From IMG/VR virus record IMGVR_UViG_3300028832_000125: a stretch of 20,000 nt of DNA; one strand, given 5' to 3'. Made by a program: the position numbers and the translations under genes. The stretch is from an uncultured virus (IMG/VR IMGVR_UViG_3300028832_000125). Its lineage: Duplodnaviria > Heunggongvirae > Uroviricota > Caudoviricetes. This document shows, piece after piece, positions 1-20,000 of this stretch (its first letter is position 1; each line of letters starts with the position of its first letter). Under the pieces are notes generated by a model, which did no database searches, had not been told where the DNA came from, and was given only the letters and a program-made list of their open reading frames with translations.

Positions 1-3000
1 TCTGAGGCAAAGTTGAATGATGCCGTCAATACCATCAACTACAGGAATAGCGAGTACGGCCAGAGCGGACTCGGTGGAAGCGTCTATGTCATCGGAACCA
101 ATGACACCACCGCGCCCGGTGACAGTAACGTTTACTCTGCCCTCAGAAGCGACAGGCAATATCCGCGAAAGAACAGGAATGATGTTATCAGTTCCCTTTG
201 GACGTTCAAGCACGGCAGAGGTCTTCGCAGGGGTATTCAGACAGAAGACTACAATGACGAAGGAGCCAATGAGGATAATCTGTTCGGCAAGGGCTTTGAA
301 CTCATATCGAAGACTGATGCCAACGGTAACATCGTAAGCCGTCTGGAGGTCGATGAGCTGTTGGTGCGCATCAAGGCTTTCTTCGCCCAACTGGAAATCA
401 GAGAGATTTCGTATGTCGGCGGTAACTACTGCTTCTCGGCAGCGGGTAGCCGTATATATTATGTTGACTGGATAGATGCCAACGGTAACGTCATCGATAA
501 GAACGTAGGCAGCATAGCCAACTGTGCGAAGTTCCGCTGTTACCTTTATTCTGATGACGGTACGACTGCCACCATCAACAAGTGGGCCGTGGATGACCAG
601 GCGATGTGCCGGACGTTCAATATTGATTCTGGGGTTCACCAGAATGTTTCCAATAAATACTACTGGCGCAGGGTCGTAGGAGTAGGCAGGGGTGTAATTC
701 CCTCTGAGGTGGTGACACCAGAGTTCACCGATGATGTAGTTCCCGCTCCCACCCAGTATCAGTATGTCGATATTTCGATGGCCGACTGTGCCATCAATAG
801 CGACTATCCAGAGCCGGATGACGCTATCGTTCAGATGGGTAACTGGAGTAACGAGAACAGACAAGGTATGATATATCTCATGGTGGAGGGTGACAGTGCG
901 CCTGCCATCATGGAGTACTCTGGTGTGGGTGCCAACGGTCAGCATTTCGTTCTGCCAGACCCCACGCTCATGTTGTCACCGAAAAAGAATATCATCTATG
1001 GCGAGTTCCATTCTGTTGTTGACTCTGAGGGAGGCGGCTCTGGTGATTCCATCGATGACCAGTTGAATGCCCTGTTGGATGCGCTCAATGACATCAAGAA
1101 TCAAGCCGATAAGAAGTTTGAAATCTGGTTCGGCAACTATGAGCCGTTACCCTCTAAAACAAACCAGTCAGCAACGCCCAACTTTCCCGCGTCTGAGTGG
1201 ATAACGGATGACTTGAAGGCCCTGCACGCGCAGGATTTGTTCTATGACACATACAAGGCTCCTGCCACTCAGAGAGGCCGGGCATGGAGGTGGATAGCCG
1301 CAGAGGGGGCGAATAATACCGTTGTTTACTACTGGGAAGATGTCACCGACCAAGACACCATTGACGCTCTGGAGAAAATCGCAGACGTGGCCAGTGACGG
1401 CAAACTGACTGGCGGTGCCGAGAAGGTGCGCGTGTTCCTTGACTGGGAAAAGGCCGTAGAGGAATACCTAAAGTACACTGAGCGGGCCAGAGACTACGAG
1501 ATAACAACGGAGTTGACCAACTACCGCAACGCCTTCAAGGAGTTGGCGAAGATGCTCAACAACAACGTGGCACTGATTACCAGTGACACCATGACTGAGA
1601 TTCCCACTCCCGCATGGCTTGCAGACCTGCAGGCAGAGACTGTCATCCCCTCTCCTGTCACGTACCGCCAGAAATGGACTGACTATTACACTACGCTTGC
1701 GGCCCTGTTGCAGGAAATCCAGAGGGTGGCAAAGGCTCTTGCCGATGCCGCACAGGCAGATGCCACCTCCGCATTGAATAAGATTGGTGATATGGCCAAT
1801 GATGGTAAACTTGACCCCACTGAGAAAGTGACGGTCAAAAGGGAGTTTATCGCCTGTTACCACGAAATGATGGACACTGATGAAGCAGGCTACGCCTCCG
1901 GCATTCTGGATATGGCAAAGAACCAGAATAACCAGTGGATAATCAACTACAACACGTACATTCTTCCGTACATCACCGCTTTCCGTGCCCTTGGTACGTA
2001 CCTCAATGGAGGCACTACATGGAATGAGCCTGCCCTTGCCACAACGATAGCAGACAGCGCATGGCCTTCATGGATTCAGTCTGCAAACATGGAAAATACC
2101 AATGATATTGCAGGCAGTACGTGGCGTGATAAATGGTCGGACTTCTACGCAAAGCGTACCGCAGTCCTCACCGCCCTCACTGACAACGCACAGACTACAG
2201 CCGATGACGCTCATGACCGTATCGATGACATCGTTTCGGATGGTATCATAAGCGCAGGTTCTGAGAAGTCCCTGCTTTATATCGACTGGATGAAGACCGT
2301 TGCGGAGTACAAGAAATATATCGAGCAGGCAGGTGACTACTTCGGAGATACTAACACGCAGGATGATGCCCTTGTGACGGCATACACCAACCTTGCCAAG
2401 ATGCTTAACAACGGAGCGAACCCGACAGCCAATATACTGAATGGTGTTGACCGTCCGGCATGGCTCACCGTAGCCAATATGAACGTTGACACGGTTCTGG
2501 CTGACACTCCCACGGCAACAGTGGCAAACTATCACTCCGTCTGGAACGCATACCATACGGCCCTCACCGCCTTGTTGGAAGTCATAACGAAGAAAGCCAA
2601 GGAACTTGCCGATGCCGCACAGGCTGACGCTACGAGTGCTCTGGAGAAAATTGGTGATATGGCCAACGATGGTAAACTTGACCCAAGCGAGAAACTTACC
2701 GTTAAACGTGAGTTTAAGGCCGCATGGGATGAAAAGGATAAGTCTGGTGGTATCATCGATATGTGCTATGATGCTACAGACAGTGCCATTATTTCCACCA
2801 CTACCATCAACGCCTATATCAACGCCTTTGTTGCTCTCGGTACGTACCTCAACAATGGTACTAACTGGAGTGCTGGCAGTTCGGTAAAGAATGACACGTA
2901 CAGGGCTAATGACAGCAATCTGCCATCGTGGATTCAGTCGGCCAATATGTCTGACACCAATACCATCACTGGAAGCACATGGCGCACGAAGTGGTCTGAC

Positions 3001-5223
3001 TTCTATTCTGCCAGAACAGCAGTATTAACGGCCCTGTCAGAAAAGGCAAAGGAAGCCGCCGATAATGCACAGGAAACAGCCGATAATGCGAATGACAGGA
3101 TAGATGACATCGTGGCCGATGGCATCATCAGTGGCGGTGCAGAGAAAAGCGGTCTGTTCATTGACTGGATGAGGTGTGTACAGGAATACCTAAAGTACAC
3201 CGAACAGGCAACGAACTACAGCGTCTCTTCCACTAACTATGTCACGGCATATACGGCTCTTGCAACCATGCTGAACGGCGGCACGGCGGCAACCGCAAAC
3301 ATCCTCAATGGAACCACTCGCCCGGCATGGCTCACCACTACAAACATACTGCTCGACACAACGCTGTCCGACTACAGCCTAACGGCAGACCAGTACCGCA
3401 CAAAGTGGAGCACATACTACACTCAGTTGACGCTTCTCATCGAGGCCATTGGTGACAAGGTGAAAGCCCTCGCCGATGAGGCTCTGGAAGAGTTGGATAA
3501 CATGGCAGAGGATGATGTCTTGACTGAGTACGAGAAAATGGTTTGCCTCAGAGAGTGGGATGCGGCCAAGGCAGAGTACACATCGCTCGTTTCGCAGTTC
3601 GCTAATACGCCAGGAGTATCTACGACAGCCCTCGCCAATGCGTTCAATATACTGTCTAACTACCTCAATAACCTGTCAACGAATAATACGACAGCGTTCA
3701 CGGGTACGGCTCCTGCATTGCTCACCGCCTCCGGCAACACGTCTATCAACGGCACAACCTTCAAGACGTACTGGCGCAACTATTACGATGAGCGTTCTAA
3801 GTTGCTTGCATCAGGCTCGAACTCGAAGATTTCCGTCTTCGCCCAGAGTTCGCGTCCGACACCTCCATATAAAGTCGGTGATATATGGGTACAGACCGAT
3901 AACAATAACAATATGATGGTCTGTATCTATGGCCGCAGTGCAGGTGCTACAGGCGCAGACTCAGACTGGGCCGACATGTCGGACATCACAGAGAAGAGAG
4001 ACCCAAGAGTTCTGCTTGCCGCATTGTGTAATATGGTTTACAGTTACGCAGGCGGGTATATAAGGAACAAAAGTTCCAACTCATACCTGGCCGTATATCT
4101 CGGTTCGAAGCCCTCTTCTGGTCATGCAGATGGTGACTTGTCTTATTATAGTAGCACGGTCTATCAGTATGTATCGAGTACATCTGGATGGAGTTCAGTG
4201 ACTAACGATACACTGAAAACCTCGCTTAGTGCGCTGTATGGTGTCATCGGAACCTACACCGTCAGAATCTTCCGCACGAAGCCGTCATCACCGTCTGCTT
4301 TCGACATGGTGTGTACGCCTGTGAACTTCACTGACGCAAACGCTCCTTCTGGCTATCAGACCGTAGAGGGCGGTATCTGCATCCAGATGTATAACGGCTC
4401 CAGTTGGGAGGTGTTGCAGGAATCCGCACACAGTATCATTGAGAATATCAAGGGCTATATCCGTGCCGTTGCTTATAAGCGTGCTGATGACTACGCCACG
4501 GCAGCGGGGCTTATCACTACTTCCGATTGGGCTGACTTATTCGCAGAGGCCACCGATGCAGACGGCAATAAGATAGCAGAGGCCCACATGAGTGCGTTTA
4601 TTACGAAGGTGAAGTCCGGCAATGACTATTATATCGAAAGTGGTATAAAGATGAGTGCCGACAAAATCGTATTCACTGGAAAGACCGTCATCAACGGCAA
4701 ATTCACCGTAGATAACAACGGAAACGTCACGATGGATGGCTTCACGGCCACGAACGCAACTATCACTGGAACGATTAACGCTTCAAGCGGAAAGATAACA
4801 GGCACGATGACCGTAGGCACGTATGCTTCCAATAAGAACAGCATCAAAATCATCCCAGATGATTCAAACCCGTCTATCGTAGGATATGTCGGAACTACAG
4901 AGGTGTTCAGAATCGGTGCGCAGGTCAATTATGACGGAGGTACAAAAGCGACATTCAAGGTTGGAAGGTCGTATCTCCGCGAGGATGGACTTTACATACT
5001 TGCCGCTGACGGAAGCAACTGCCGCGCCTACTCAACAAGATTCATCGTTGAAAGAGTCATCAACAGCCTGCACTATCCTTTCTGTATCGACATCGATTCA
5101 AGCGGAAAAGTCATACTTGGTGCAAATGGTGCATCGATGTGGCCTACCTCGAAGAGTTATGTAGGATGGGGTGATATTTACGTTGACGGTGATGTTCTGA
5201 AGGTCAATATGGATGGTGGATAA
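1..5223 (+). CDS. Large phage tail/baseplate-associated structural protein, 5'-truncated, with six internal helical repeats
   Basis: The frame is open from position 1 (TCT GAG GCA AAG TTG...), so the real start is probably upstream of the window. Motifs resemble Bacteroidales phage tail proteins (SRLEVDELLVR..FAQLEIREISYVGG, DAIVQMGN...RQG, PTPPYKVGDIWV). The C-terminus is beta-rich (IKMSADKIVF..NATITGTINASSGKI). It lies upstream of the DGR target and lysis genes. Confidence 0.8.
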   Translation, partial: SEAKLNDAVNTINYRNSEYGQSGLGGSVYVIGTNDTTAPGDSNVYSALRSDRQYPRKNRNDVISSLWTFKHGRGLRRGIQTEDYNDEGANEDNLFGKGFELISKTDANGNIVSRLEVDELLVRIKAFFAQLEIREISYVGGNYCFSAAGSRIYYVDWIDANGNVIDKNVGSIANCAKFRCYLYSDDGTTATINKWAVDDQAMCRTFNIDSGVHQNVSNKYYWRRVVGVGRGVIPSEVVTPEFTDDVVPAPTQYQYVDISMADCAINSDYPEPDDAIVQMGNWSNENRQGMIYLMVEGDSAPAIMEYSGVGANGQHFVLPDPTLMLSPKKNIIYGEFHSVVDSEGGGSGDSIDDQLNALLDALNDIKNQADKKFEIWFGNYEPLPSKTNQSATPNFPASEWITDDLKALHAQDLFYDTYKAPATQRGRAWRWIAAEGANNTVVYYWEDVTDQDTIDALEKIADVASDGKLTGGAEKVRVFLDWEKAVEEYLKYTERARDYEITTELTNYRNAFKELAKMLNNNVALITSDTMTEIPTPAWLADLQAETVIPSPVTYRQKWTDYYTTLAALLQEIQRVAKALADAAQADATSALNKIGDMANDGKLDPTEKVTVKREFIACYHEMMDTDEAGYASGILDMAKNQNNQWIINYNTYILPYITAFRALGTYLNGGTTWNEPALATTIADSAWPSWIQSANMENTNDIAGSTWRDKWSDFYAKRTAVLTALTDNAQTTADDAHDRIDDIVSDGIISAGSEKSLLYIDWMKTVAEYKKYIEQAGDYFGDTNTQDDALVTAYTNLAKMLNNGANPTANILNGVDRPAWLTVANMNVDTVLADTPTATVANYHSVWNAYHTALTALLEVITKKAKELADAAQADATSALEKIGDMANDGKLDPSEKLTVKREFKAAWDEKDKSGGIIDMCYDATDSAIISTTTINAYINAFVALGTYLNNGTNWSAGSSVKNDTYRANDSNLPSWIQSANMSDTNTITGSTWRTKWSDFYSARTAVLTALSEKAKEAADNAQETADNANDRIDDIVADGIISGGAEKSGLFIDWMRCVQEYLKYTEQATNYSVSSTNYVTAYTALATMLNGGTAATANILNGTTRPAWLTTTNILLDTTLSDYSLTADQYRTKWSTYYTQLTLLIEAIGDKVKALADEALEELDNMAEDDVLTEYEKMVCLREWDAAKAEYTSLVSQFANTPGVSTTALANAFNILSNYLNNLSTNNTTAFTGTAPALLTASGNTSINGTTFKTYWRNYYDERSKLLASGSNSKISVFAQSSRPTPPYKVGDIWVQTDNNNNMMVCIYGRSAGATGADSDWADMSDITEKRDPRVLLAALCNMVYSYAGGYIRNKSSNSYLAVYLGSKPSSGHADGDLSYYSSTVYQYVSSTSGWSSVTNDTLKTSLSALYGVIGTYTVRIFRTKPSSPSAFDMVCTPVNFTDANAPSGYQTVEGGICIQMYNGSSWEVLQESAHSIIENIKGYIRAVAYKRADDYATAAGLITTSDWADLFAEATDADGNKIAEAHMSAFITKVKSGNDYYIESGIKMSADKIVFTGKTVINGKFTVDNNGNVTMDGFTATNATITGTINASSGKITGTMTVGTYASNKNSIKIIPDDSNPSIVGYVGTTEVFRIGAQVNYDGGTKATFKVGRSYLREDGLYILAADGSNCRAYSTRFIVERVINSLHYPFCIDIDSSGKVILGANGASMWPTSKSYVGWGDIYVDGDVLKVNMDGG
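1366..3810 (+). repeat. Six tandem ~130-150 aa protein repeats alternating two subtypes (A-B-A-B-A-diverged)
   Basis: Unit starts: 1366 ALEKIADVASDGKL, 1771 ALNKIGDMANDGKL, 2209 AHDRIDDIVSDGII, 2638 ALEKIGDMANDGKL, 3088 ANDRIDDIVADGII, 3481 ALEELDNMAEDDVL. Each unit ends in a W..[YF]Y or W..YH helix. DNA similarity is still visible (1741-1817 vs 2608-2684). Confidence 0.85.
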
Positions 5224-6847: not shown

Positions 6848-9800
6848 ATGGCAGACATTATCAATTTGCAAGAGGCTTGGGAAGGTCACAGCGGCTCGGA
6901 AGTCGAGACCTTCATCAAGAAAGAGTTGAAAGGCAGGGCAGGAGCCGTCAGATGGGTGCAGAACAGCACATATTACTCCATCCAGGGCTTCGCCTCGGCA
7001 GCAGACAAGGCAGCGTATATCAGCGACCCCGTAGGTAACGCCAACCTCCTGTTGTTTGAAGAGGAACTGCCTATCTCCACAACTCAGAGTGACAGTTACA
7101 TCGCCCGTCTGTACTGCGACAGGGACACATCGAAGTCCTTTGCCGTGAAAGACGGTGACACTTTCTCCGTTGGACTGAGATTCTCGGCCATCCACGTCAT
7201 CGCCGCTACCAGTGAGCAGGAAAAGATGGACGGCAACGGTACGCTCATCATCGAACGCTCGACAGACGGCAGCACATGGACTCGCGTGGCATCGCAGGCC
7301 ATCGCCAGTGTTGACATCGACACTGAGGGCTATCCCGCAACGGTGGAGATTGGACGCTACCTGCTGACGGGCAGGCAGAACCATATCCGTCTGAGGGCCA
7401 CCTTCGGCTATACCGATGCAGGAGGCAATGACGCTACGATGGCCAGTGGTAACATCATCCTGTCTATCGCTTCCGTCTCTCTGGCAGTGACCCTACAGAC
7501 GAACTGGGCGCAGCCAGTACAGGCAAGCCAACTCACGGCACTGCCATTGCAGTTCATGGTGGAGGGTTCCGTCAGAAAGTACCTTCATGTGCAGGTATCT
7601 GGCATTGACGGCTATTCTGGCCATGACAGCGTAGAGGAATATTCGGCAGCGCAGGAGGGCAGTATGACCGTACTGTGCCAGGATGGTGCGGGTACGAAGG
7701 GAATCCTCAGAACTGGAGTCCATACCGTCCGTGCATGGCTTACCGCTGATGACGGTGACGGCGGCACCATCACAAGTGATGTCATCAGCCACCAGTTGAT
7801 GATGGTCAACACCAATCAGCCGTCCACGCTGATGCAGCCGAGACTACTCATCCAGAGTGTGGCCAGTTCCATTGACAACTTCGTACAGGGCCGTGTTTGT
7901 AAGTATGCGGTCTATTCCCCGAAACTCGTTGACGGTTCATACACCAACCAGGGTGACCCGGTGACGTTCTCGCTTTTGCTCACTGACAGGAGTGATGACA
8001 TTCTCGCAGGCAACCACGTAGTGTACTTCGACCAAGAGGTGACGGCATCGCCCGGTCAGCAGTATGACCTTCTGGCCACTCTGGAGATTGAGCAGAACGC
8101 GGGTGAGGTAGCGGCAGAGAGTTTCGACACGTTCCTGCATGCTACGCGCATGGTAGGCAGCACCCTCACCGATTTCCTGCTGTCGAGTTACGGCACTGGA
8201 TATATGTATGTGTCCGTGGATAACACTGGAGGCTTCCAGCCCACGGCAGGCTCCGTGTTCCTTCTGAATCCTAAGACCAGAAACAACAGTGAGGCTAACC
8301 CTCGCCGCATCCTCAACGGACGTAACAATAACGCCGAGGTCGAAAGTGTCTGGAGTGAGGGTTTCAAGATGGACGGCTCTGATGGTTGGACTGTAGATGA
8401 TGACGGTAACAAGGTATTGCGAATCCCCGCAGGCTGTCTTCTGAATATCAGATACAACCCCTTTGCGCAGTTCCTCAACTCGCCGGACTCCACACTGACG
8501 ATAGACCTTGATTTCTGCGTCCGTAACGTGGTGAATGAGGATGACCCCATCATCCGTCTGTGTGAGACTCTGGATGCAGAACGTGGCACGTTCATGGGCC
8601 TGCGTATGCGTCCGATGGTTGGCACTATGGCCTCCGCTCTCTCTGAGGGTGTCGAGACTGAGACTGACTTCCGTTGGGGTGAGGACAGGCGCACGCATAT
8701 CTCTATCAATATCGTCCCGAACGTTGCACCCAATACCTACGGTGACGGTCTCGTTGTCGCTGCAGACCAGAGCAGGGCAAGGGGTACGCTGAACCTCGTA
8801 AGGGTGTTCATCAACGGTGTCATCAACCGTGAGTTGCGTTTCTCCACTGAGGCGGGCGCACGGGAGTTCTGTACGGCTGCTCTATCTAACGGCGGTATCT
8901 TCATCGGCCAGGACGGTGCGGACATCGACATCTACGGCATCCGCGTATGGGACAGCACCGCTTCGGCCATCACTCCGAAGGATGCCATCCAGAACTACAT
9001 ATCCACGCTGCCGACCAGTGAAGAGAAAGTCCGTGTGAAGGAAAAGAACGCCATCACTAAGACCAACGGCCTTATCTCTCTGGAGGCTTGCCGTGACAAG
9101 GGCCTCAGAAACATGGTGTGGCACGGTGTCGAGCCTTTCATCAAGGAAACGAGCGGTTCAAGGGGTTGGATAGAAATGCGGTGCTATGACAATAATGGCA
9201 ACTACCTGCCGGAATGCTCTGGAACCATCTGCAAGGAGTCGAAGTCGCTCAAACCGAAGAGACAGGGTACTACGGCCAACACGTACTACTATTCAAACCT
9301 CCAGTTCAAACTCAGTGACGTTACTGACACCATACAGGTAGCCGTGGCCGACTTCCACAGCAGCATCGTTATCTCCGCTCCATTCGAGAGCGAGGGAAAC
9401 ACGTATGTCAGCATCTACGGAGGCAACCTCGGCAAGGATTTCCCTGTAGGCAACGCCACAAAGGACTATCCGTATGCAGACGGTTACGTGACGGTTCCCG
9501 ATGGATGGATTGACGGCAACGGCAAGTACCGTGGCATGGGCTATATGATTGCTCCTAATCAGCCGTTGGCTCAGAAACTGGTGCTGAAAATCAACTACGC
9601 CTCATCGATGCAGTCGCACCTCATCGGTATCAACTGGCTCTATCATGAGTTGCACACCCGCTTCTGTGGCCAGAACTCTTTGCAGAGGGACACGCCTACG
9701 GCTCTGGTGGCAAAGCATACCGAACCGTTGCTTTTCTTCACGGCAGGAGTGAATGAGGAAGACCCCGCTGCAGCCGTCTATCGCGGCCCCGGTGCCTTCG

Positions 9801-12800
9801 GCCCTGGCAAGATGGATAAGCCCACTTGGGGCTACAGTAAGAACGCCTCGAAGATTACGGACTCATCCAACGCGCACTACCGCCCGGACGGTCATGACTA
9901 CTTCGCCATGTTTGAAGGTGCCAACAATAACACCATCCTTGGTGATATGGTCGCACCGTGGGATGACACCACCCACAACGGGCAGGAGGCGAAGGTGTAC
10001 TACGACCCAGACGCTGAGGCTTTCATGTACCGTAAGACAACCACCAGAGAAGAGGTTGTTGACGGGCAGACTACCATTGTCGAGACCGTCACCAGTGAGA
10101 AGTGTATCGACTTTGACGGTGGCCCGACAGACAAGGTGACTGTTGGCGGTGAGGAACTGGAATACCCGAAGGAGCGCGTCACGGCAATCTTCCGTAATGC
10201 GGTCAATTTCCTGTATCTCCATAACCCGCGTGTGAACATCTACCGTGGCACGTTCGCGCAGTTGCAGCAGGAGTCCATGACTGAATATCAGTTGAAGGAA
10301 AAGTGGTGGTGTCGCTCCAATGCAGGTACTGACACTGATGACTACCTGTTGAAGCGGTGGGACTTCTACGAGCGCAGATGGGTGGACGCTGGCCTCTGGA
10401 ACGCCACCATCCTTGCCTATGACAAGGTGGACATCCGTAACTATACTGGAATGAACTGGAGTTCGATGACTGCAGCAGAGCAGGCAGACCATACGGCGGT
10501 GAACGCCAAGTTTATCTCATGTGTGGTCGCTGATGCCAAGGCTCATATCGGCGAGTACTTCAAGGAGTCATCGTTGAAGTTCCACTACTGCTTTGAAAAC
10601 CACTTCATCGCAGGAACCGATAACTGTTCAAAGAACACGTACTATGTCATCGACCCTGTTACGAAACTTATAGAGTTGCATCAAGATGACGTTGACACCA
10701 CTCTGGCCACCGATAACAACGGATTCCAGAGCAAGCCGTACTACGTTGACCGTATGCACCCGTGGGCTGACAGTGACCCCGGCCACCTCGATTGTTGCTA
10801 TGAGGGCCGTCAGAACACGCTGTTTAACCTCTGCGAGGAAATGTGGGAAGGTACGCATGAACTGAGTGCGGCCTTGAACAGCATCCTGTCGCTGATGGCT
10901 CAACTCTCTGGAGGCATCGGCTCCGCAGAGAGTGACAATATGAGTGGCGTATGGAAGGCACTGAACCGTTACATCTTCGACATTCAGCGTTACTTCCCGC
11001 AGGTGGCCTTCAATGAGGCAGCGAGAATCAGATATGAGTTCCCCGCCATGTTGGGCTTCCTTGGACGTGATGTCATCGACCCGCTCACCCAGTCCATGGG
11101 TGACCAGTTGGAGTCGGAGTTGCAGTTCATGAACAGAAGACTTGTCTATATGGCCTCGTATGCCGTATTCGGTGAGTTCCTGCCCTCTCAGTCTGGAGCC
11201 AGAAACGGCCTTACTGGACTTGATGACGCAAGCGCATCGATGGCCTTCAACGCCAAGGCCCTGCCAGACGGCGTGACAACTCCGACATACACGTTCCATG
11301 TCAAGCCTCATCAGTACATCTACCCGTGCTTCGGCTTCCAGACTGATTCCAAGCCGTCCTACACCAGAGTAGCGCCGGGACAGGTGTTCGAATTTACCGT
11401 GCCTGGTGTTGTCATCAGTGATAACGGCGTTTCTCTCTTCGGACTGAACTACTACCGTTCCGTAGGAAACATCGGCGATATGTCGTGTGACCCCAATATC
11501 GCTTTCTCCCTTGATGGCAGACGATTGACGGAGTTGGTGGCAGAGCCTACCACGTACTATCCAACCCCAGAGACCCTTGCGGGCAACCCGTCCGCAACAC
11601 CTGTCAGCGTACCCACTGCGGGCTATCAGCCTGCCTTCCGTCCGGCATCCTTCCGTATTTCTACGGGTACGAGACTGAGAAAGCTGTCACTGAAAGGCTG
11701 TTCCACATTGTCGAGTAGTGAACGTGCGCCTCTGAACCTGTCACCGCTGACGTTGTGCCAGGAGATAGACCTGCGTGACACGAAGATAGCAGCCGTGAAC
11801 GTTCCTCAGACCGCCTCGATGGAAACGCTGAGGCTTCCCGCCACGATGACCTCATTATCGCTGACGGCACAGCAGAACCTCGACACCCTCACCATGCAGG
11901 GCGGCTTGCTCCTTACGTCCCTGGTCATCACTGGCTGTCCGTCACTGTCAACGCAGGCCCTCATCCGCTCCATCTTCGATGAGAGAGAGACGGCGGGCAC
12001 TATCACGCCTCTGGACGTGCTGAGGCTGCATGATGTCAACTGGAATGAACTGAAAGCCGATGTGCTCATGTGGATGGCCAACGCCACCGTTGCGGAGATA
12101 TTCGGTAAGGTCATCATGCTCCGTGCAAGCAATGACCGTTGGCTGTCATTCTCAGAGGTCATCCAACTGATAAGGAAGTTCGGCGATATTCAGACTGTCC
12201 CCTCTGGGAACACAGTACCGTCCGACAGATTCTATATTGACTACCAGAAGCGTGACGTGAACGGCATCCTCATCAAGGGTGAGAAGTACGTCTATACCCT
12301 CGGTCAGCATGATATTTGGGAGGCAGCGGCCACAAACAATGTCGGTAACAATATCGCAGTGGTCAATGGCCGTGAGGCTGTCACTTGGGAACTGGTGACG
12401 GCAGGGGCATCGCAGTATGCTCAGATTGTCGATAACGTGAAGGGTACGGTGAATATCACGAACACCTATGCCTATAACGAGTACATGACATTCATCCTGC
12501 GTCTCACCGTCCTGCTGTTGGATGGCACCTCTCTGACCTATGACAAAAAGGTAGGCTTCCACAGGCGATTCCCGAAAATCAATGACTTCGCCTACGGTGA
12601 CGGCTCGTTTGATGATGAGTACGACCCCTCGAAGGAACTGGTGGGTGCCGTGGTGAAGGTTGACAAACTATCCGACTCACAGTACAAGTTCTGGGTGTAT
12701 GCAAAGGAGAATGCGCAGTTGAAGAGCGATGATAGCACCTACAACACCGCCTCTCACGTCTGGGGTATCTATCCAGATGAGGCAGGCAGCAACGGATTCC

Positions 12801-13594
12801 CCGCCTCCGTGTACAACCAGATACGTGATGATGCGGGCCTCTCCAATGCGGTTGATACGGCCATGGCCAATATCGGCAGTCGTGGCATGAGTACGGCCTA
12901 TATCCCCACTGGCGGGTTCTGGGATGCCAACGAGCCTGACGGATTCAAGAAATTCGCGGCTAATCTGGCTGAAAGTGACTTCGCCACTGAGGAAAAGAAC
13001 CAGATTGTCATCAATCATGCCAAGGCCATCATTAACGGCCACCTCGGAGAGTCGTACCCGACCACTCCGGCAGAACTGGCAAACGCCATGCAGGCCCTCG
13101 TAGCAGCCATGACGGCGCAGGGTGTGACCTCACCTGCCAGATACAGGCAGTTGTACTATCCCGCCGCCTTCGCCTGTCATGTCTATCAGCCATCCGTTGA
13201 CGGTCAACTGAATGAACAGTACGCCCGTACCAAATGGATGCTTCCTTCGGAAGGTCTGCTGTGTAGGATATACGCCTTCTTCTACAACAGTTGCGGGCGT
13301 GTGACGTATGCAAATGGTGGTAGGTGTGTTGCATCAAACGCCAATGAGAACCCAGACAGCGAGGCACTGCTTCCGTTGTTCGCCAACCTCTTGAAGCGTA
13401 TTGATGATGCAGGGGTAACGACCACTCCGTTCACTATCCCGTCTAATAGCAACTACTGGTCAGTTACTGAGTACAGCAGCATCAACGCGTGGGGCGTGAG
13501 CTTCAATGATGGTGGCGTCAGCACCTACTCCATCAGCGGCAAGTCCAACTGTAACGTTGTTCGGCCAGTGGCAGCATTTACCTACAACCTTTAA
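6848..13594 (+). CDS. DGR target: 2248-aa putative receptor-binding/structural protein (Ig-like, LamG-like, CotH-kinase-like, LRR, C-terminal CLec-type variable domain)
   Basis: The 3' end contains the VR matching the TR. C-terminal YWSVTEY....AW.V.F..G...NVVRPVAAF is typical of C-type-lectin-fold DGR targets. LamG-like VRVFING..IFIG.DGADIDIYGIRVW at ~8250-9000. LRR-like LRKLSLKGC / IDLRDTKI / LRLPATMTSLSL at ~11670-12060. Confidence 0.9.
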   Translation: MADIINLQEAWEGHSGSEVETFIKKELKGRAGAVRWVQNSTYYSIQGFASAADKAAYISDPVGNANLLLFEEELPISTTQSDSYIARLYCDRDTSKSFAVKDGDTFSVGLRFSAIHVIAATSEQEKMDGNGTLIIERSTDGSTWTRVASQAIASVDIDTEGYPATVEIGRYLLTGRQNHIRLRATFGYTDAGGNDATMASGNIILSIASVSLAVTLQTNWAQPVQASQLTALPLQFMVEGSVRKYLHVQVSGIDGYSGHDSVEEYSAAQEGSMTVLCQDGAGTKGILRTGVHTVRAWLTADDGDGGTITSDVISHQLMMVNTNQPSTLMQPRLLIQSVASSIDNFVQGRVCKYAVYSPKLVDGSYTNQGDPVTFSLLLTDRSDDILAGNHVVYFDQEVTASPGQQYDLLATLEIEQNAGEVAAESFDTFLHATRMVGSTLTDFLLSSYGTGYMYVSVDNTGGFQPTAGSVFLLNPKTRNNSEANPRRILNGRNNNAEVESVWSEGFKMDGSDGWTVDDDGNKVLRIPAGCLLNIRYNPFAQFLNSPDSTLTIDLDFCVRNVVNEDDPIIRLCETLDAERGTFMGLRMRPMVGTMASALSEGVETETDFRWGEDRRTHISINIVPNVAPNTYGDGLVVAADQSRARGTLNLVRVFINGVINRELRFSTEAGAREFCTAALSNGGIFIGQDGADIDIYGIRVWDSTASAITPKDAIQNYISTLPTSEEKVRVKEKNAITKTNGLISLEACRDKGLRNMVWHGVEPFIKETSGSRGWIEMRCYDNNGNYLPECSGTICKESKSLKPKRQGTTANTYYYSNLQFKLSDVTDTIQVAVADFHSSIVISAPFESEGNTYVSIYGGNLGKDFPVGNATKDYPYADGYVTVPDGWIDGNGKYRGMGYMIAPNQPLAQKLVLKINYASSMQSHLIGINWLYHELHTRFCGQNSLQRDTPTALVAKHTEPLLFFTAGVNEEDPAAAVYRGPGAFGPGKMDKPTWGYSKNASKITDSSNAHYRPDGHDYFAMFEGANNNTILGDMVAPWDDTTHNGQEAKVYYDPDAEAFMYRKTTTREEVVDGQTTIVETVTSEKCIDFDGGPTDKVTVGGEELEYPKERVTAIFRNAVNFLYLHNPRVNIYRGTFAQLQQESMTEYQLKEKWWCRSNAGTDTDDYLLKRWDFYERRWVDAGLWNATILAYDKVDIRNYTGMNWSSMTAAEQADHTAVNAKFISCVVADAKAHIGEYFKESSLKFHYCFENHFIAGTDNCSKNTYYVIDPVTKLIELHQDDVDTTLATDNNGFQSKPYYVDRMHPWADSDPGHLDCCYEGRQNTLFNLCEEMWEGTHELSAALNSILSLMAQLSGGIGSAESDNMSGVWKALNRYIFDIQRYFPQVAFNEAARIRYEFPAMLGFLGRDVIDPLTQSMGDQLESELQFMNRRLVYMASYAVFGEFLPSQSGARNGLTGLDDASASMAFNAKALPDGVTTPTYTFHVKPHQYIYPCFGFQTDSKPSYTRVAPGQVFEFTVPGVVISDNGVSLFGLNYYRSVGNIGDMSCDPNIAFSLDGRRLTELVAEPTTYYPTPETLAGNPSATPVSVPTAGYQPAFRPASFRISTGTRLRKLSLKGCSTLSSSERAPLNLSPLTLCQEIDLRDTKIAAVNVPQTASMETLRLPATMTSLSLTAQQNLDTLTMQGGLLLTSLVITGCPSLSTQALIRSIFDERETAGTITPLDVLRLHDVNWNELKADVLMWMANATVAEIFGKVIMLRASNDRWLSFSEVIQLIRKFGDIQTVPSGNTVPSDRFYIDYQKRDVNGILIKGEKYVYTLGQHDIWEAAATNNVGNNIAVVNGREAVTWELVTAGASQYAQIVDNVKGTVNITNTYAYNEYMTFILRLTVLLLDGTSLTYDKKVGFHRRFPKINDFAYGDGSFDDEYDPSKELVGAVVKVDKLSDSQYKFWVYAKENAQLKSDDSTYNTASHVWGIYPDEAGSNGFPASVYNQIRDDAGLSNAVDTAMANIGSRGMSTAYIPTGGFWDANEPDGFKKFAANLAESDFATEEKNQIVINHAKAIINGHLGESYPTTPAELANAMQALVAAMTAQGVTSPARYRQLYYPAAFACHVYQPSVDGQLNEQYARTKWMLPSEGLLCRIYAFFYNSCGRVTYANGGRCVASNANENPDSEALLPLFANLLKRIDDAGVTTTPFTIPSNSNYWSVTEYSSINAWGVSFNDGGVSTYSISGKSNCNVVRPVAAFTYNL
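13446..13579 (+). repeat. DGR variable region (VR)
   Basis: Aligns to 14233-14357. Outside the AAC tract there are 11 substitutions, all at TR adenines (6 A>G, 4 A>T, 1 A>C), with no non-A mismatch. There are 9 extra nt at the AAC tract. Confidence 0.97.
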
Positions 13595-13626: not shown

Positions 13627-13660
13627 ATCCTCTGAACCAGAAATAAGACAAGTGGAAAAG

Positions 13661-14110
13661 ATGCAAGAGACAGAAAGTTCACGGGGTGTTGTGATTCCCG
13701 ACTCCGTTGTTGAGAGTAGCAACACCAAGAAAAGGTCTGCAAAGAAGACGTTGGCTCAACTTCCAGTTTACAGGGCAACGGCCAACTTGAAATACATCGT
13801 GACCGCTCTGATTGTGAAGAGTCCGAATAAACTGAGGAAATTCTTCGACCAGATGTTGGTCAACGTGTCGGAGGTTGCAAAGGCCATCGGCATGGCTGAT
13901 ATTTCAAGGAGTCCGGCAGACAGGGTGTGGTACATCGAGACCGCCCTTGTGCTCGTAAACGAAGTGAGAAATGATTTCACCATCCTGCGGAAACTGGAGG
14001 TCATTGTTGACAAAGACCTCGACAACAAGGCAAAGGCAATGGTGAAGAGTGTGATTGCGCAGCTTGTGGCGTGGCGCGATTACACCTGTGGCGAGGGTGC
14101 CAAATCGTAA
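13661..14110 (+). CDS. avd: DGR accessory protein, Avd-like four-helix bundle
   Basis: Lies between VR and TR/RT; ~150 aa, helical; AQLPVYRA..L near the N-terminus and a C-terminal QLVAW helix resemble Avd/four-helix-bundle proteins. Alternative GTG start at 13652. Confidence 0.8.
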   Translation: MQETESSRGVVIPDSVVESSNTKKRSAKKTLAQLPVYRATANLKYIVTALIVKSPNKLRKFFDQMLVNVSEVAKAIGMADISRSPADRVWYIETALVLVNEVRNDFTILRKLEVIVDKDLDNKAKAMVKSVIAQLVAWRDYTCGEGAKS

Positions 14111-14135
14111 ATCCGATTCTTCGAGAAAAAGAGAT

Positions 14136-15650
14136 ATGACAGGCAGAGTGTTACATAATCCGTTAAATGGGCGATTTACTGCGGTGGATATTATGGTTCA
14201 TCGCAGTTACGATGATGCAAAATCGCAGACAGATAGCAACTACTGGTCAGTTACTGAGAACAACAGCAACAACGCGTGGAACGTGAACTTCAATGATGGT
14301 AACGTCAACAACAACAACAAGTACAACAGTAACGTTGTTCGGCCAGTGGCAGCATATGACGGTTTATTCAACATCTTCTATGAGTCCGTGGAATATGCGT
14401 ATCATGATTGTCTGAGAGGCAAGATGTCTTCAACACAGGCAATGGAGTATATGCAGATTGCATGGGCTGACCTTCCATGTCTTGCATGGGAGTTGTGGAC
14501 TGGCATATACAGGCCCACGACCTCCACTTGTTTTCTGGTCAGATACCCTAAACTCAGAGAGGTGTTCGCGGCTAACTTCCGTGACCGTATCGTTCATCAC
14601 TGGGTATGCCTCAGACTGGAGCCGTTGTTTGAAGAGCGGTTCATCGCACAGGGTAACGTGTCATTCAACTGCCGCAAGGGGTTCGGTACGCAGAAATGCG
14701 TGGAGCACTGCGCGGAAGGCATGGAGAGGGTGTCCGGCCACTACAGAATACCCGCATGGGTGTTCAAGGGTGACTTGACTGGATTCTTCATGTCGATAGA
14801 CAAGGCCCTGCTGTGGTATCTTCTGGAGAGATTCATCACCAGATGGCGCAAGAGGTACGAGCGAGAGGGATGGGCGAGGATAGGCAGTGACATCCTTGAC
14901 CGCCTCGGTCTGGACGCGATGCCCGAAATGTACTGGGACATACTACTGAGGACAACGCAGGTCATCGTCATGCACCATCCAGAGAAAGACTGCGTGCTCA
15001 ATTCGTCTGCTTCCCTCTGGGGCGGGCTTGCACCCAATAAGTCTCTTTTCGGGTGCGGTGAGGAAAAGGGAGAGCCGATAGGCAACCTCACAACGCAGTT
15101 GTTCGCCAATTTCCTCATGTCATACTTTGACCAGTACGTTCTCTACCTGTTCAGAAGACAGAACTACTCATACGAGAGGTTCGTTGATGACTTCGACAAT
15201 ATCTGCGATGATATGCAGTTCCTGTTGTCGGCCATTCCTAAGATGGAGGCGTTCCTTCGTGAGAAGTTGAAACTGACGCTCCATAAGGATAAGCGTTACC
15301 TGCAACAGGTGACGCACGGCCTCATGCTCGTTGGGACTTACATCAAACCCGGCAGGCTGTACCTGTCTAACAGGACGCTTGCGAGGTTCGCCGAGCGTGC
15401 AGAGGGATTCAGAAAACTCATGGAGTGCAAGGATGAGTTGACCATACTCGACTGCAAGCGCATCGAGCAGGTCATCAACTCCTATCTGGGATTCTGCAAG
15501 GGCAAGAGGACGTACAAAAGGAGAAAGGAGATACTGGACTCGATGGGGCCGCTTTTCTTCAAGTATTTCTACATCAAGGGGCACTATGACAGTATTAGGG
15601 CAAAGAATAAGTACAGGGAGTTGATTCTTCCGTTTAATATCAATCAATAA
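14136..15650 (+). CDS. DGR reverse transcriptase
   Basis: RT motifs: PKLREVFAANFRDRIVHH, NCRKGFGT, KGDLTGFFMSID, GEPIGNLTTQLFAN, YERFVDDF, LTLHKDK, LVGTYIKP. Adjacent to TR and avd. First ATG after the avd stop is 14136; the exact start is uncertain. Confidence 0.95.
   Translation: MTGRVLHNPLNGRFTAVDIMVHRSYDDAKSQTDSNYWSVTENNSNNAWNVNFNDGNVNNNNKYNSNVVRPVAAYDGLFNIFYESVEYAYHDCLRGKMSSTQAMEYMQIAWADLPCLAWELWTGIYRPTTSTCFLVRYPKLREVFAANFRDRIVHHWVCLRLEPLFEERFIAQGNVSFNCRKGFGTQKCVEHCAEGMERVSGHYRIPAWVFKGDLTGFFMSIDKALLWYLLERFITRWRKRYEREGWARIGSDILDRLGLDAMPEMYWDILLRTTQVIVMHHPEKDCVLNSSASLWGGLAPNKSLFGCGEEKGEPIGNLTTQLFANFLMSYFDQYVLYLFRRQNYSYERFVDDFDNICDDMQFLLSAIPKMEAFLREKLKLTLHKDKRYLQQVTHGLMLVGTYIKPGRLYLSNRTLARFAERAEGFRKLMECKDELTILDCKRIEQVINSYLGFCKGKRTYKRRKEILDSMGPLFFKYFYIKGHYDSIRAKNKYRELILPFNINQ
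14233..14357 (+). ncRNA. DGR template region (TR), overlapping the RT reading frame
   Basis: 125 nt, 46 adenines and 14 AAC codons by manual count. Identical to the VR at all aligned non-A positions. Confidence 0.95.
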
Positions 15651-16248: not shown

Positions 16249-16284
16249 GAAAGACCTTTTTTCTGATATTTATAGTTAAAGTTA

Positions 16285-16314
16285 TTTGTTATTCAAATAA
16301 ATTGTGTACCTTTG
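16285..16314 (+). promoter_or_regulatory. Bacteroidetes primary-sigma-type promoter upstream of the lysis cassette
   Basis: TTTG (16285-16288), 18 nt, then TACCTTTG (16307-16314). Close to the TTTG/TAnnTTTG (-33/-7) consensus, with slightly short spacing, in an AT-rich gap. Confidence 0.65.
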
Positions 16315-16456
16315 CATCAAGATTAGGTAGTCATGGAGTCTGGCTGATTCATGGTGCCTCTTCGATGTGCTGTGCAAGTGCCGTCCCTTTTCTGGCTGTG
16401 GGTGATGGTTGTGGGCATAGCGAGTTTTGACCATCTAAAAAAAGTTACAGAATGAA

Positions 16457-17044
16457 ATGGATACGACTGTAGGAGCAAAAGCCTTGATGTGGGGTTCCAT
16501 AGGAACCGAGTTGATAGGTGTTGTCTATGACCTCAGATACATGGTTATCTGTTCGGTTGTTCTTATCCTGGCTGACTTGTGGTGGGGTTACTCAGAGTCC
16601 AAACTGCGGCTGTCGGAGGCAAAGGAGAAAGGCAGTGCCGCCCTTGAAGAGAAATTCAAGTGGCACAAGAGCCGGGCAGGGCGCAGGACGGCAAACAAGG
16701 TTGTTGACTATCTGACATATCTCGTAGTCGGAGCCTTCATCGGCCTCGCCATCACGGAACCAATGGATATTTGTAGCCATATATGGAGTGCCGCCATCGG
16801 CCTCGGTATCGGCTGTGCCTGCGAGATTGCCTCTATCATAGGGCATATCGCCTACGTGAAACTCGGAGTTGAAATCAGCCTGGTTGACGGGTGGAGAGTA
16901 TTCGTCCGATTCTTGGGAAAACTTATCAAGTCAAAGAGTAACGAGATTGGTGAGGCCGTGGAAGACTTGGGGCGTGAGGGCCACCGTCACCACCATCACC
17001 ACATGCCGGACATCTATGACGAAGAGCAGAATATGGAGTTTTAG
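16457..17044 (+). CDS. Phage holin
   Basis: Several hydrophobic segments; ADLWWG...KSRAGRRTANKVVDYLTYL...CEIASIIGH pattern of Bacteroidales phage holins; directly upstream of the endolysin. Confidence 0.8.
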   Translation: MDTTVGAKALMWGSIGTELIGVVYDLRYMVICSVVLILADLWWGYSESKLRLSEAKEKGSAALEEKFKWHKSRAGRRTANKVVDYLTYLVVGAFIGLAITEPMDICSHIWSAAIGLGIGCACEIASIIGHIAYVKLGVEISLVDGWRVFVRFLGKLIKSKSNEIGEAVEDLGREGHRHHHHHMPDIYDEEQNMEF

Positions 17045-17047
17045 AAT

Positions 17048-17608
17048 ATGGCAAGACTTGAAACATTATGGCCTTTCATCCTTTCGTGGGAAGGAGGCTT
17101 CGCAAACGTCCCCGGTGACAAGGGCGGTGCAACGAAGTACGGTGTCACCATATCCACTTGGAAAGCGCAGGGCTATGACAAGGATGGTGACGGTGACATA
17201 GACGTACAGGACTTGAAACTCATCACCACCGATGATGCCATGAGGATATGCCGCTTGAACTTCTGGAACCGTTGGAAAGCGGATGAGATTAAAGACCAGA
17301 GCGTGGCAAACCTGCTCGTTGACTGGGTATGGGCCTCTGGTGCACACGGCATAAAGAGACCTCAGAGAATCCTCGGTGTGAAGGTTGACGGTATCGTAGG
17401 CCCTAAGACCATCGCCGCCATCAATAACTGGAAGTACGGGCAGCGCGACCTGTTCAATGCCATTATGAAAGACCGTCTGGCCTTCATAAACAGCATTGCG
17501 GTAGGTACGCAGGCCAAGTTCAAGACGGGTTGGCTGAACCGTCTTCGTTCCATCCAGTACGGGTCTCTGACACTGAACACTAACCCGAAGAAAACGGTGA
17601 GGTTCTGA
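17048..17608 (+). CDS. Endolysin, glycoside hydrolase family 108 with C-terminal peptidoglycan-binding domain
   Basis: WEGGFANVPGDKGGATKYGVT catalytic motif, then QRILGVKVDGIVGPKT and KFKTGWLNR. Confidence 0.92.
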   Translation: MARLETLWPFILSWEGGFANVPGDKGGATKYGVTISTWKAQGYDKDGDGDIDVQDLKLITTDDAMRICRLNFWNRWKADEIKDQSVANLLVDWVWASGAHGIKRPQRILGVKVDGIVGPKTIAAINNWKYGQRDLFNAIMKDRLAFINSIAVGTQAKFKTGWLNRLRSIQYGSLTLNTNPKKTVRF

Positions 17609-17892
17609 TGGATAGACTGGAAAAGTTCGAGCGCGTGGAGTTCGTGGAGTACATGCCAGACCCTACCGAATACGAGTGGGCCGTGCTGTATGTAAGCATC
17701 TATTTCGGTCTCGCCATCTGCCTGTGCCCGTGCGGCTGCGGAACACCTTGCGTCATGCCGCTGAAACCCAATGACCCGCAAGGGTGGGATTTCTCAGAGC
17801 ATAACGGCAAGGTCACTCTCTCGCCATCCGTTCTACAGGATGGATGCAATGCGCATTTCTTTATTAGGGACAATAAAATAATTTGGGTATGA
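17608..17892 (+). CDS. DUF6527-like small Cys/His protein
   Basis: CLCPCGCG...W.....G.VTLSPSV....CNAHFFIRDNKIIW matches my recollection of the DUF6527 pattern. Start and stop overlap both neighbours. Confidence 0.75.
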   Translation: MDRLEKFERVEFVEYMPDPTEYEWAVLYVSIYFGLAICLCPCGCGTPCVMPLKPNDPQGWDFSEHNGKVTLSPSVLQDGCNAHFFIRDNKIIWV

Positions 17893-18461: not shown

Positions 18462-18496
18462 TGAGGGGTTGGCGAAGGGCTGACCCCTCATTCTTT
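18462..18496 (+). terminator. Intrinsic terminator between the convergent lysis operon and integrase
   Basis: TGAGGGGTTGGC-GAAGG-GCTGACCCCTCA (12-bp stem, two G:U pairs) followed by TTCTTT. The integrase stop codon lies in the right arm. Confidence 0.7.
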
Positions 18497-19729
18497 CCCC
18501 AAAACGTAGTCTATCACCTTGCGGTTTGCAGCGTCCACCTTGGCCATGTTGTAGTCAATGTAGATGGCCGTTGTCTTATTGGTGATGGAGTGGCCCAGAG
18601 AGGCAGAAATCGTCTCATGCGGTATATCCAACTCGCTTGCTATCGTAGCCCATGTGTGACGCGCCCAGTATGATGACAGGCCGGGGAAGGCGGCATGATG
18701 CACCTTGTGGAGCCTGTGCTTATGACTCCCCGGCTTCCATTTCGGGTTTGGCTCATAGGTCACGGGGCCTATCTCTTTGAGTCCCCTGTCGAACTTCTGC
18801 GTGAACGTCCGTGGCAGTCTGATGTCATCCATGAGATTCAGCAGGTGTTTCTTGCCACGGTAGCGGCTGATGATTTCCATCGCCTCCGGCTCCACCTTGA
18901 TACTATACATCTTCTTTGTCTTCGCACGCTTATAGACCAGATGGCCGTCCGGCGATATGTCGTAGAGCAGGCAGAGGTCTGTCACGTTGATGCCGATGAG
19001 GAAGAATGACAGTTTGAACATGTCGAGGTAACGCTGCTGATACGGCTCCACTGGATAGTTGAACAGTTCCCGCAGTTGACTGAGGGTGAGTGAGCGTTTC
19101 TTGGTGGCCTCCGGCCTTATCTTGAACTTGCGGAACGGGTAGGCAGTGGTGATGTCATTGTCTATGGCATCGTTGAAGACGGCACGGATATTCCTCAGAT
19201 GGATATTGCGCCCGTTCTTTGAGGGTGAGCACTTCATCAAGAAACGCTCGAAGCCGTCAAGCCATTCCTTTGATATGTCCTCGAAGGTGAGGGTACGCGC
19301 CTTGGAGTCATATTCCAGAATCTTCTTTAGCGTCTGGTCGTATTTCTCCTTAGTGCTTGCGGCATCCCGTGTGGAGGCATAGAGTTCAAATCGGTGAACC
19401 AGAGAATTAGGCTCATAGTCCTTTGGCTCCAGAATGGCCATCAGCCTGTTCTTAATCTGGGTGGCCGACAGTTTGGTTAGTTCCCCTTCAACGGTAAGCC
19501 TCATCAGCAGGTTGCTGACTTCCGTTTTACGGTTGGCGATGAAGGAGTTGATACTTTGCCTGTTCGGGTGTTCCTTGACCCTCTCCCTTACTGAATCCCA
19601 CTGGTTGGGGTGAATCCACTGGCCGAGGGGTATGTATGCCGATGACCCCCGCTTGTTGATGCCAATCTTTAGTTGCGCCTCAGAGCCTCTGAGACTGCGC
19701 CTGTCGAGATAAATGTGTACCGTTGCCAT
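18488..19729 (-). CDS. int: Tyrosine recombinase / phage integrase
   Basis: N-terminal arm-binding-type region (IYLDRR..LKIGI), SAM-like core (TFEDISKEWLDGFERFL), catalytic-region motifs YKRAKT, YWARHTWAT, LGHS, TAIY. Adjacent to a tRNA 3' end. Confidence 0.95.
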   Translation of the reverse strand: MATVHIYLDRRSLRGSEAQLKIGINKRGSSAYIPLGQWIHPNQWDSVRERVKEHPNRQSINSFIANRKTEVSNLLMRLTVEGELTKLSATQIKNRLMAILEPKDYEPNSLVHRFELYASTRDAASTKEKYDQTLKKILEYDSKARTLTFEDISKEWLDGFERFLMKCSPSKNGRNIHLRNIRAVFNDAIDNDITTAYPFRKFKIRPEATKKRSLTLSQLRELFNYPVEPYQQRYLDMFKLSFFLIGINVTDLCLLYDISPDGHLVYKRAKTKKMYSIKVEPEAMEIISRYRGKKHLLNLMDDIRLPRTFTQKFDRGLKEIGPVTYEPNPKWKPGSHKHRLHKVHHAAFPGLSSYWARHTWATIASELDIPHETISASLGHSITNKTTAIYIDYNMAKVDAANRKVIDYVLGKE

Positions 19730-19790: not shown

Positions 19791-19859
19791 CTCCGTAACC
19801 GTTTCCTTATTTCATTGCTCTTTGCCCTTTGTTTACGGGCCTCATACGCTATTATTTCG

Positions 19860-19947
19860 CGGAGAGAACAGGATTCGAACCTGCGAACCGCTTTTGACGG
19901 TTACACGCTTTCCAGGCGTGCCTCTTCAACCACTCGAGCACCTCTCC
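19860..19947 (-). tRNA. tRNA-Ser(GGA), probable prophage integration site
   Basis: Reverse complement: GGAGAGGTGCTCGAGTGGTTGAAGAGGCACGCCTGGAAAGCGTGTAACCGTCAAAAGCGGTTCGCAGGTTCGAATCCTGTTCTCTCCG. Acceptor stem, anticodon loop CT-GGA-AA, long variable arm and TTCGAAT T-loop are present; CCA is not encoded. Confidence 0.97.
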
Positions 19948-19964
19948 TTGTTGATTTGCGGATG

Positions 19965-19972: not shown

Positions 19973-20000
19973 ATCATTTTCCTTGAACTTTAAACTTTGA

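Follow-up and report, generated by a model that had tools for sequence, protein, structure and literature searches.

The stretch of DNA analysed here (the window, 20,000 nucleotides) comprises bases 58708-78707 of the 78,707-base record of an uncultured Caudoviricetes virus (IMG/VR IMGVR_UViG_3300028832_000125). It contains the target gene of a diversity-generating retroelement (DGR), whose 2248-aa product is predicted to carry an atypical kinase domain with the fold of CotH, placed between a LamG-like domain and the leucine-rich repeats (LRRs) that precede a C-type-lectin (CLec) tip. The gene for a 2273-aa tail protein lies on its 5′ side, and avd, the template repeat (TR), the reverse transcriptase (RT), an endolysin and an integrase lie on its 3′ side (Table 1). 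The host phage looks temperate, Bacteroidales-type and siphophage-like, with the target gene inside the tail module. Terminase, portal, major capsid and tape-measure genes were present in the 78.7 kb record by PHROG comparison, genes upstream of the 2273-aa protein gave PHROG tape-measure and tail matches, and the N-terminal part of that protein gave a weak tail match (phrog_326, E 6.6e-4).

A preliminary description of this DNA had proposed a CotH-like region at 9100..11160 from a series of motifs. The quoted motifs are ordered and in frame in the target gene, and these limits nearly equal the span that aligned to CotH structure 5JDA. From an alignment of 70 rows, AlphaFold2 gave a model of aa 740-1450 with a predicted local distance difference test score (pLDDT) of 92.5 and a predicted template modelling score (pTM) of 0.92. 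In an exhaustive structure comparison (VIA) against 48,161 chains, the best match to the model was Bacillus cereus CotH (5JDA; Z 18.4, root-mean-square deviation (rmsd) 4.2, 346 of 359 residues), followed by CtkA (Z 8.8) and then mostly by atypical kinases (PI4K, HipA, Fam20, PI3K-like). Foldseek, the check suggested at the outset, placed 5JDA and 5JD9 as its top two (probability 1.00, target TM 0.53). Structure matches also included viral models labelled CotH or spore-coat protein, gp353 of phage G, and crAss-like proteins. The five motifs form conserved islands of the kinase family, a likeness beyond chance, and insertions (about aa 830-900 and 1040-1230) bring the domain to about twice the length of CotH. 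Together, the structure Z scores and the domain matches in relatives agree with a CotH-like fold set between LamG, LRR and CLec parts, and the model predicts that the region adopts a CotH-type atypical protein-kinase fold.

Several results weigh against this assignment. The Foldseek E value was just 1.1e-3, with an rmsd of 13.2; Pfam CotH was matched neither by the target protein or region nor in a six-frame PF08757 scan of the record; the target protein and two profiles matched no PDB sequence; and the kinase profile reached a probability of 0.8% against 8 cellular CotH domains, in a weak alignment that still sets the C-lobe motifs in register. In PHROGs, the target protein matched solely families of unknown function. 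On the other side, 4 of 54 relatives matched PF08757 weakly (best E 3.4e-4), and a phage CotH above the Pfam cut-off is linked by profile to the kinase family (probability 94.7%, E 5.8e-8). We filed the domain as CotH-like and not as a PF08757 member because it falls below the Pfam cut-off and its adenine pocket does not match.

Residue equivalence with CotH was assigned by sequence register. B. subtilis CotH autophosphorylates and phosphorylates structural coat proteins, thereby patterning assembly; D228 and D251 are each required for its activity, and the adenine is sandwiched by Tyr142 and Trp245 (10.1101/469122, citing Nguyen 2016 for the residues). In the 5JD9 chain, the site reads D224, N229, W246, D247 and D249 in sequence numbering (published +1). 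D1258, N1263 (Asn at +5), D1280, D1281 and D1283 of the target protein are spaced as in 5JD9, and the D1258-D1281 spacing of 23 equals that of D228-D251 in B. subtilis and D224-D247 in 5JD9. The motifs do parallel those ascribed to CotH in the preliminary description, except that WDxD reads DDxD here.

The catalytic Asp and Lys residues, whose loss across homologues would have pointed to a structural pseudokinase, were retained. In the main conservation set (the best 150 of 687 representatives, 50% clustering), D1258, K1262, N1263, D1280, D1281, D1283 and N1290 were identical in 150/150, K914 was invariant in all 145 sequences covering it, and K988 and D990 in all 148. The catalytic-type residues were also kept in 120/120 closer sequences (best 120 of 743) and, K914 included, in 55/55 regions sharing 27-83% identity, a second set taken from 93 complete domains among 107 matches after partials and near-copies were dropped. 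Positions conserved in at least 98% of sequences numbered 49 of 705 in the kinase domain compared to 23 of 1543 elsewhere (3/460, 13/280, 5/355 and 2/448), LamG being the second most conserved part. The ratio of nonsynonymous to synonymous rates (dN/dS) was ~0.02-0.05 in the core (three pairs) compared to ~0.10-0.12 in the N-terminal and LRR parts, with dS near saturation; both contrasts are inflated, because the kinase region served to select the homologues and core windows were chosen post hoc.

The nucleotide pocket argues in the opposite direction. The CotH Trp245 position is Asp (D1280) in 150/150 and 120/120 sequences, and the CotH N-lobe RG...KK, which occurs as RG...KK(S/P)Y in 5JD9 and 5 of 8 cellular CotH domains, is gone, being Q806-G807 here and QG...Y/W in the subfamily, with no matching Lys. 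Judging from the alignments, the Asp-for-Trp245 and QG...Y/W-for-RG...KK changes are fixed throughout the subfamily, and ATP binding is therefore not assured. F1022, the likely Tyr142 equivalent by motif reading, varies (F/I/M/L/A). The invariant K914 and K988 may substitute for the N-lobe Lys pair, and the strand-then-helix order in the model, read with general kinase topology, suggests that K914 is the ATP-binding beta3 lysine. A dead pseudokinase is unlikely because D1258, N1263, D1281 and D1283 are invariant in 150/150, and it was rejected as the default since the catalytic Asp, metal ligands and Lys are all retained across homologues. The preliminary description had left the choice between enzyme and pseudokinase open; the invariant Asp/Asn/Asp/Lys set favours an active enzyme, with the reservation that the adenine pocket is unlike that of CotH. 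These results indicate that the domain is real, was correctly recognised, and is likely to be catalytically intact as far as its residues tell, and we consider catalytic activity quite probable.

Table 1. Features of the DGR target gene and its surroundings (window positions; aa, amino acids; VR, variable repeat; CBM, carbohydrate-binding module; Ig, immunoglobulin)
Feature	Position	Strand	Basis or remark
3′ part of 2273-aa tail protein	1..5223	+	Record 57109-63930; downstream of tape-measure and small tail gene
DGR target gene, 2248 aa	6848..13594	+	Open reading frame (ORF) list; without signal-peptide-like or membrane-like hydrophobic stretch
String of beta-sandwich (Ig/CBM-like) domains (predicted), aa ~80-460	7085..8227	+	AlphaFold2 model, pLDDT 85.9
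LamG/concanavalin-A-like domain (predicted), aa ~461-730	8228..9037	+	Z 16.1, rmsd 3.3, 202 aligned
CotH-fold atypical kinase domain (predicted), aa 751-1441	9098..11170	+	Structure alignment to 5JDA, model residues 12-702
N-lobe motif KRQGTTANTYYYSNLQFK, QGTTA..Y...N (Q806, G807, Y813, N817), aa 804-821	9257..9310	+	Replaces CotH RG...KKSY
LVLKINYASSMQSH, K914-I-N916-Y-A-S-S-M-Q-S-H924, aa 911-924	9578..9619	+	K914 at strand end before long helix
FGPGK988MD990KPTWG	9797..9832	+	Absent from the preliminary motif list; K988 and D990 invariant
MFEGANN, aa 1021-1027	9908..9928	+	Motif in frame
AGTDNCSKNTYY, catalytic-loop-type D1258-N-C-S-K1262-N1263, aa 1255-1266	10610..10645	+	D1258 codon 10619-10621; spacing-equivalent to B. 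subtilis D228
HQDDVDTTLATDNNG, metal-binding-type D1280-D1281-V-D1283, aa 1278-1292	10679..10723	+	D1281 equivalent to CotH D251
LRR region, ~aa 1600-1760, limits approximate	11645..12127	+	LRR_4 in 11/47 homologous C-terminal regions
CLec (Lcl_C/DUF1566) tip, ~aa 1903-2248, start approximate	12554..13591	+	Lcl_C in 37/47 homologous regions
Variable repeat VR1	13446..13577	+	17/17 TR/VR1 mismatches at TR adenines, two ungapped blocks
Likely Avd accessory gene	13652..14110	+	Position; weak 23S_rRNA_IVP match, E 0.054
Open frame with TR and DGR RT	14055..15650	+	RVT_1, E 5.3e-6; true start likely after TR
TR	14233..14355	+	Repeat comparison with VR1
GH108 endolysin, end of late module	17048..17608	+	Pfam
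Tyrosine integrase (temperate phage)	18488..19729	-	Pfam

The presence of the target protein on the virion is likely, going by its setting and its relatives. We surveyed 102 fetched loci, not dereplicated, and found a tail-gene homologue upstream in 45 of 78, in siphophage-type and BS-TP1 sheath-encoding contexts alike. Against this, 33 of the 78 had no upstream tail homologue, although few queries were used and misses do not equal absences. The target protein has no signal- or membrane-like segment (Kyte-Doolittle maximum 1.73, N-terminal maximum ~0), and a secreted lysogenic-conversion protein was rejected on the missing signal-like segment. In Table S6 of PMC12135933, polyethylene glycol (PEG)-precipitated Hankyphage particles yielded 5 peptides (6%) of a 'Tail fiber protein' and 15 peptides (10%) of a 'Minor tail protein', which was present above 250 kDa as well; from gene order and peptide arithmetic, this minor tail protein is probably the 2245-aa Hankyphage target. 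The two labels look exchanged relative to the GenBank annotation (L115:5240-16020), and both large tail-region proteins were found in the particles whichever label fits. That experiment was a single crude replicate in which thymidylate synthase, Gam and a transposition protein were also present, and the single replicate and the non-structural proteins make it weak support for a virion location. The distant relative gp353 of phage G also counts against a tail role, since it adjoins metallophosphoesterase and diguanylate cyclase genes and not annotated tail genes, so that members of the wider family can also lie outside annotated tail modules. In Bacillus phage G (L116:2061-12275), gp353 has LamG, kinase and LRR-like parts and lies directly 3′ of the metallophosphoesterase gene and near a GGDEF gene.

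The predicted domain order of the target protein is beta-sandwiches, LamG, kinase, LRR and CLec. The model of aa 211-322 matches a porphyran-binding CBM (Z 11.3, rmsd 2.5, 100 aligned); Foldseek of the N-terminal model returned generic tandem beta-sandwich/Ig-like proteins with low TM-scores and identified no tail-attachment fold. Structure matches of the LamG region continue with many glycan-binding domains of the concanavalin A fold. Further along, aa 1602-1706 match the Hankyphage protein (E 2e-7), the atlas neighbours of the LRR region are LRR_4/LRR_EndoS/Lcl_C proteins, and Pfam Lcl_C on the target itself covers aa 2190-2241, below cut-off. Between the kinase and the tip lie ~460 aa, made up of linker, LRR and further domains.

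The DGR is real, with adenine-specific TR/VR pairs. In addition to VR1, a second VR (record 17484-17600) has 15/15 mismatches to TR at TR adenines, and a second target of 229 aa lies at record 16922-17611 (L026:939-1628), ~55 kb from TR. This second target, far from the tail module, is probably non-structural; the ORF upstream of it resembles DNA methyltransferases in a motif and may encode one. Separately, VR1 exceeds TR by 9 nt (three codons) at an AAC tract (window 13520-13540), an excess missing from a contig of run X3. Homologues of the Avd gene lie directly 3′ of the target in many related loci.

We compared the kinase and the tip across relatives. An RT was found within 3 kb downstream in 55 of the 71 surveyed loci with enough sequence, and none was found nearby in 16. 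A crude pattern called a CLec-like tip in 78/150 representatives, an undercount on inspection. Among 16 hand-picked proteins with non-CLec tips, BspA-type LRR_5 was detected in 14 and Lcl_C in none (E 0.001), and all of them retain the catalytic residues. The kinase thus does not depend on the DGR tip, since the same site is kept with BspA-LRR tips and in loci without a nearby RT, and the exchange of tips among relatives places the kinase in a constant core fitted with different binding tips. The suggestion that the DGR retargets an enzymatic effector is, on the same counts, weakly supported. Shorter, stand-alone versions were also looked for; the 16 proteins found come mostly from short contigs and are probably fragments, and stand-alone members may yet exist. 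Some relatives are unusual: one locus (L075:2-14719) carries the kinase-bearing gene as a tandem pair of paralogues, avd and RT lying between the two; four others (L057, L065, L071 and L081) have the gene split over two frames within the kinase region or close to it, which a frameshift, an insertion or an assembly error could explain; and the sister-type kinase domain is weakly matched in Lactobacillus and Klebsiella phage records, in part by proteins annotated as spore coat protein or CotH kinase.

Our best explanation as a whole, to which we give a probability of roughly 0.4, is that a recognition protein attached to the tail contains an active CotH-like kinase, which works in the producing cell. 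A CotH-fold phosphotransferase with a likely working site would form part of the conserved core of a giant protein that recognises the host and is probably attached to the tail. Late in infection, it would draw on host-cell nucleotide and phosphorylate either itself or the tail proteins next to it as a step in assembly, and the DGR would separately retune the lectin tip at the far end, the part expected to bind the host. That the enzyme acts during assembly, and not at or in the next host, is the tentative part of this explanation; it is suggested by the free virion having no ATP supply and, as an analogy, by B. subtilis CotH patterning the spore coat. Two negative results weigh against it: a scan of the phage ORFs for Ser/Thr-rich repeats found no CotB/CotG-like Ser-Lys-Arg repeat substrate, and in the literature we found no assay of activity, substrate or virion location for any family member.

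The domain could alternatively act outside the cell, as a virion-borne enzyme that works during adsorption on a glycan or lipid of the host envelope, by phosphotransfer or by hydrolysis of a phospho-substituent, helped by the LamG and CBM-like domains in the manner of capsule-clearing tailspikes. The glycan-binding folds directly upstream of the kinase, the second rank of LamG in conservation, the large insertions as a possible new substrate site, and the lipid and sugar kinases among the fold neighbours are consistent with such an enzyme, and the altered pocket (Trp245 to invariant Asp, KK pair lost) would be explained if the enzyme used not free ATP but another donor or substrate. We nevertheless regard it as unlikely, since an extracellular phosphate donor is not evident and the aromatic and the Lys are retained in the sister subfamily, whose domains come in the same order. 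Its more specific form, in which temperate Bacteroidales phages of the gut bear on the tail an active enzyme of the kinase fold, its nucleotide pocket rebuilt, that chemically modifies the host surface or receptor at adsorption and is aimed by the DGR lectin, is distinctly improbable; if true, it would be a targeted enzyme-on-a-fibre mode of entry undescribed for phages.

The same altered adenine-stacking position and N-lobe basic residues, together with the absence of an obvious substrate and of an ATP supply in the virion, would fit a pocket whose nucleotide or metal ligand makes the fibre stiffer or triggers it without any transfer of phosphate. Pseudokinases usually lose the catalytic base or a metal ligand in some lineages, whereas D1258, the putative catalytic base, is present in 150/150 together with the two metal ligands, which makes this switch rather unlikely. 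A host-directed effector, a kinase that works within the infected cell or lysogen while the lectin varied by the DGR picks or regulates its protein substrates, would have access to a cytoplasm rich in ATP; the TR also feeds the second target, phage G gp353 lies among signalling-type genes, and a published I-TASSER model puts the VR near the kinase (10.1101/2020.04.01.020958). The position of the gene in the tail module, the distance between kinase and tip, the intact kinases with BspA-LRR tips and without a nearby RT, and an N-terminal part resembling an extracellular adhesin string all speak against this effector, and we consider it quite unlikely. Chance likeness of the motifs in a region that is not kinase-like, which the missing Pfam and PDB sequence matches might suggest, is scarcely tenable and was rejected, being contradicted by the confident model, by Foldseek and the exhaustive structure alignment, by the profile link to Pfam-positive phage CotH and by the weak Pfam matches of relatives.

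Regarding the source of the window, at least half of its words were found in 5 of the 24 public runs listed, 4 of the 5 being labelled bovine gut; two bovine-gut-labelled runs are from the same sample and are possibly its source, and no RNA run carrying the window was among those listed. Relatives occur at 28 loci of the genome collection, most of which are titled Bacteroidales. Elsewhere in the window, the 2273-aa tail protein has degenerate repeats with a period of ~290 aa (window 1366-3219; families D1, D2, D5 and D7), and short AT-rich intergenic elements at 16255-16318 and 19859-19987 show an inverted pair (I1) and likenesses to record 38784-38843 and 60-122, the last of which may be an attachment-site repeat.

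The combination of CotH, LamG, LRR and CLec parts has been in print since 2014-2018, and the novelty implied by the preliminary description is not supported. CotH was reported in 6 DGR variable proteins (Ye, PMC4159848), and category f1 comprises 13 targets of ~2000 aa with CotH and Laminin_G_3, 7 of them near phage structural genes (Wu et al. 2018, PMC5758913). PC_00012 was later described with a proposed manipulation of host signalling (Roux et al., 10.1101/2020.04.01.020958), CotH-CLec fusions were called unstudied (Benler et al., PMC8008677), domain group 3 was given 5JDA likeness, carbohydrate-binding motifs and LRRs (Macadangdang et al., 10.1101/2024.11.15.621889), and ~2000-aa DGR targets including BS-TP1 gp27 were termed potential tail proteins (PMC12694917). 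As far as their available parts go, PMC7824862, PMC8143477 and PMC6199706 hold no statement on CotH or protein kinases in such targets. The literature found does not mention the Trp-to-Asp subfamily, whose members may be listed in the supplements of Wu, Roux and Macadangdang. Our analysis adds a model-based structural confirmation for a branch missed by Pfam, a residue map with a subfamily-wide change of the adenine pocket, a kinase that outlasts changes of tip, and the placement of a cultured phage in the same subfamily. The phages that carry these proteins are very common in the gut, and a kinase active on the virion would be a new use of the protein-kinase fold in phage assembly or entry.

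Compared to known systems, f1, PC_00012 and group 3 share, in their published descriptions as available, a length of ~2000 aa or more, the same domain set, a C-terminal VR and a phage context. The present target has 2248 aa, CotH-like, LamG and LRR parts, a CLec VR with RT and avd, and a position near structural genes; in contrast to these groups, its CotH-like domain goes undetected by Pfam. BS-TP1 gp27 (PQ571274) matches it over the full length (26% identity, E 9e-159), has the DNxxKN and QDDxD motifs, and is followed by avd and RT; BS-TP1 is a cultured temperate Bacteroides phage with a likely tail sheath, whereas the present phage is siphophage-like, and the available part of PMC12694917 does not use the word kinase for the BS-TP1 targets. 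The Hankyphage p00 target or 'tail fibre' (BK010646; PV107405 31489-38226, 2245 aa) and the BT-TP2 type also lie in the tail module, and the Hankyphage target is colinear with the present protein in its N-terminal, LamG, kinase and LRR parts. However, tblastn of the present kinase region against Hankyphage gave no match at E 1e-3, and the Hankyphage-type sister group keeps the aromatic before the metal Asp and the N-lobe Lys, unlike the present subfamily; both residues are kept in 80/80 mutually close sister loci (best 80 of 243), Hankyphage and phage G gp353. A quick tree with long branches, used just to show the split into two subfamilies, also put the Hankyphage type on a separate branch, and membership of the Hankyphage subfamily was rejected on tblastn, tree and residues. 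By these comparisons of sequence, the present protein belongs with BS-TP1 gp27 in a divergent subfamily that is sister to the Hankyphage type. CotH itself (B. cereus 5JD9/5JDA, B. subtilis, PF08757) shares the fold and the catalytic Asp, Asn and metal Asp in register, and differs in that the present domain has 11% identity to it and ~330 extra residues, carries Asp for Trp245 and QG...Y/W for RG...KK, and is embedded in 2248 aa. Finally, the Quimbyvirus-type two-target DGR (PMC8008677) likewise has one target after the tail genes and a second, distant one near methyltransferase-like genes, and differs from the present phage, in which the RT is one open frame.

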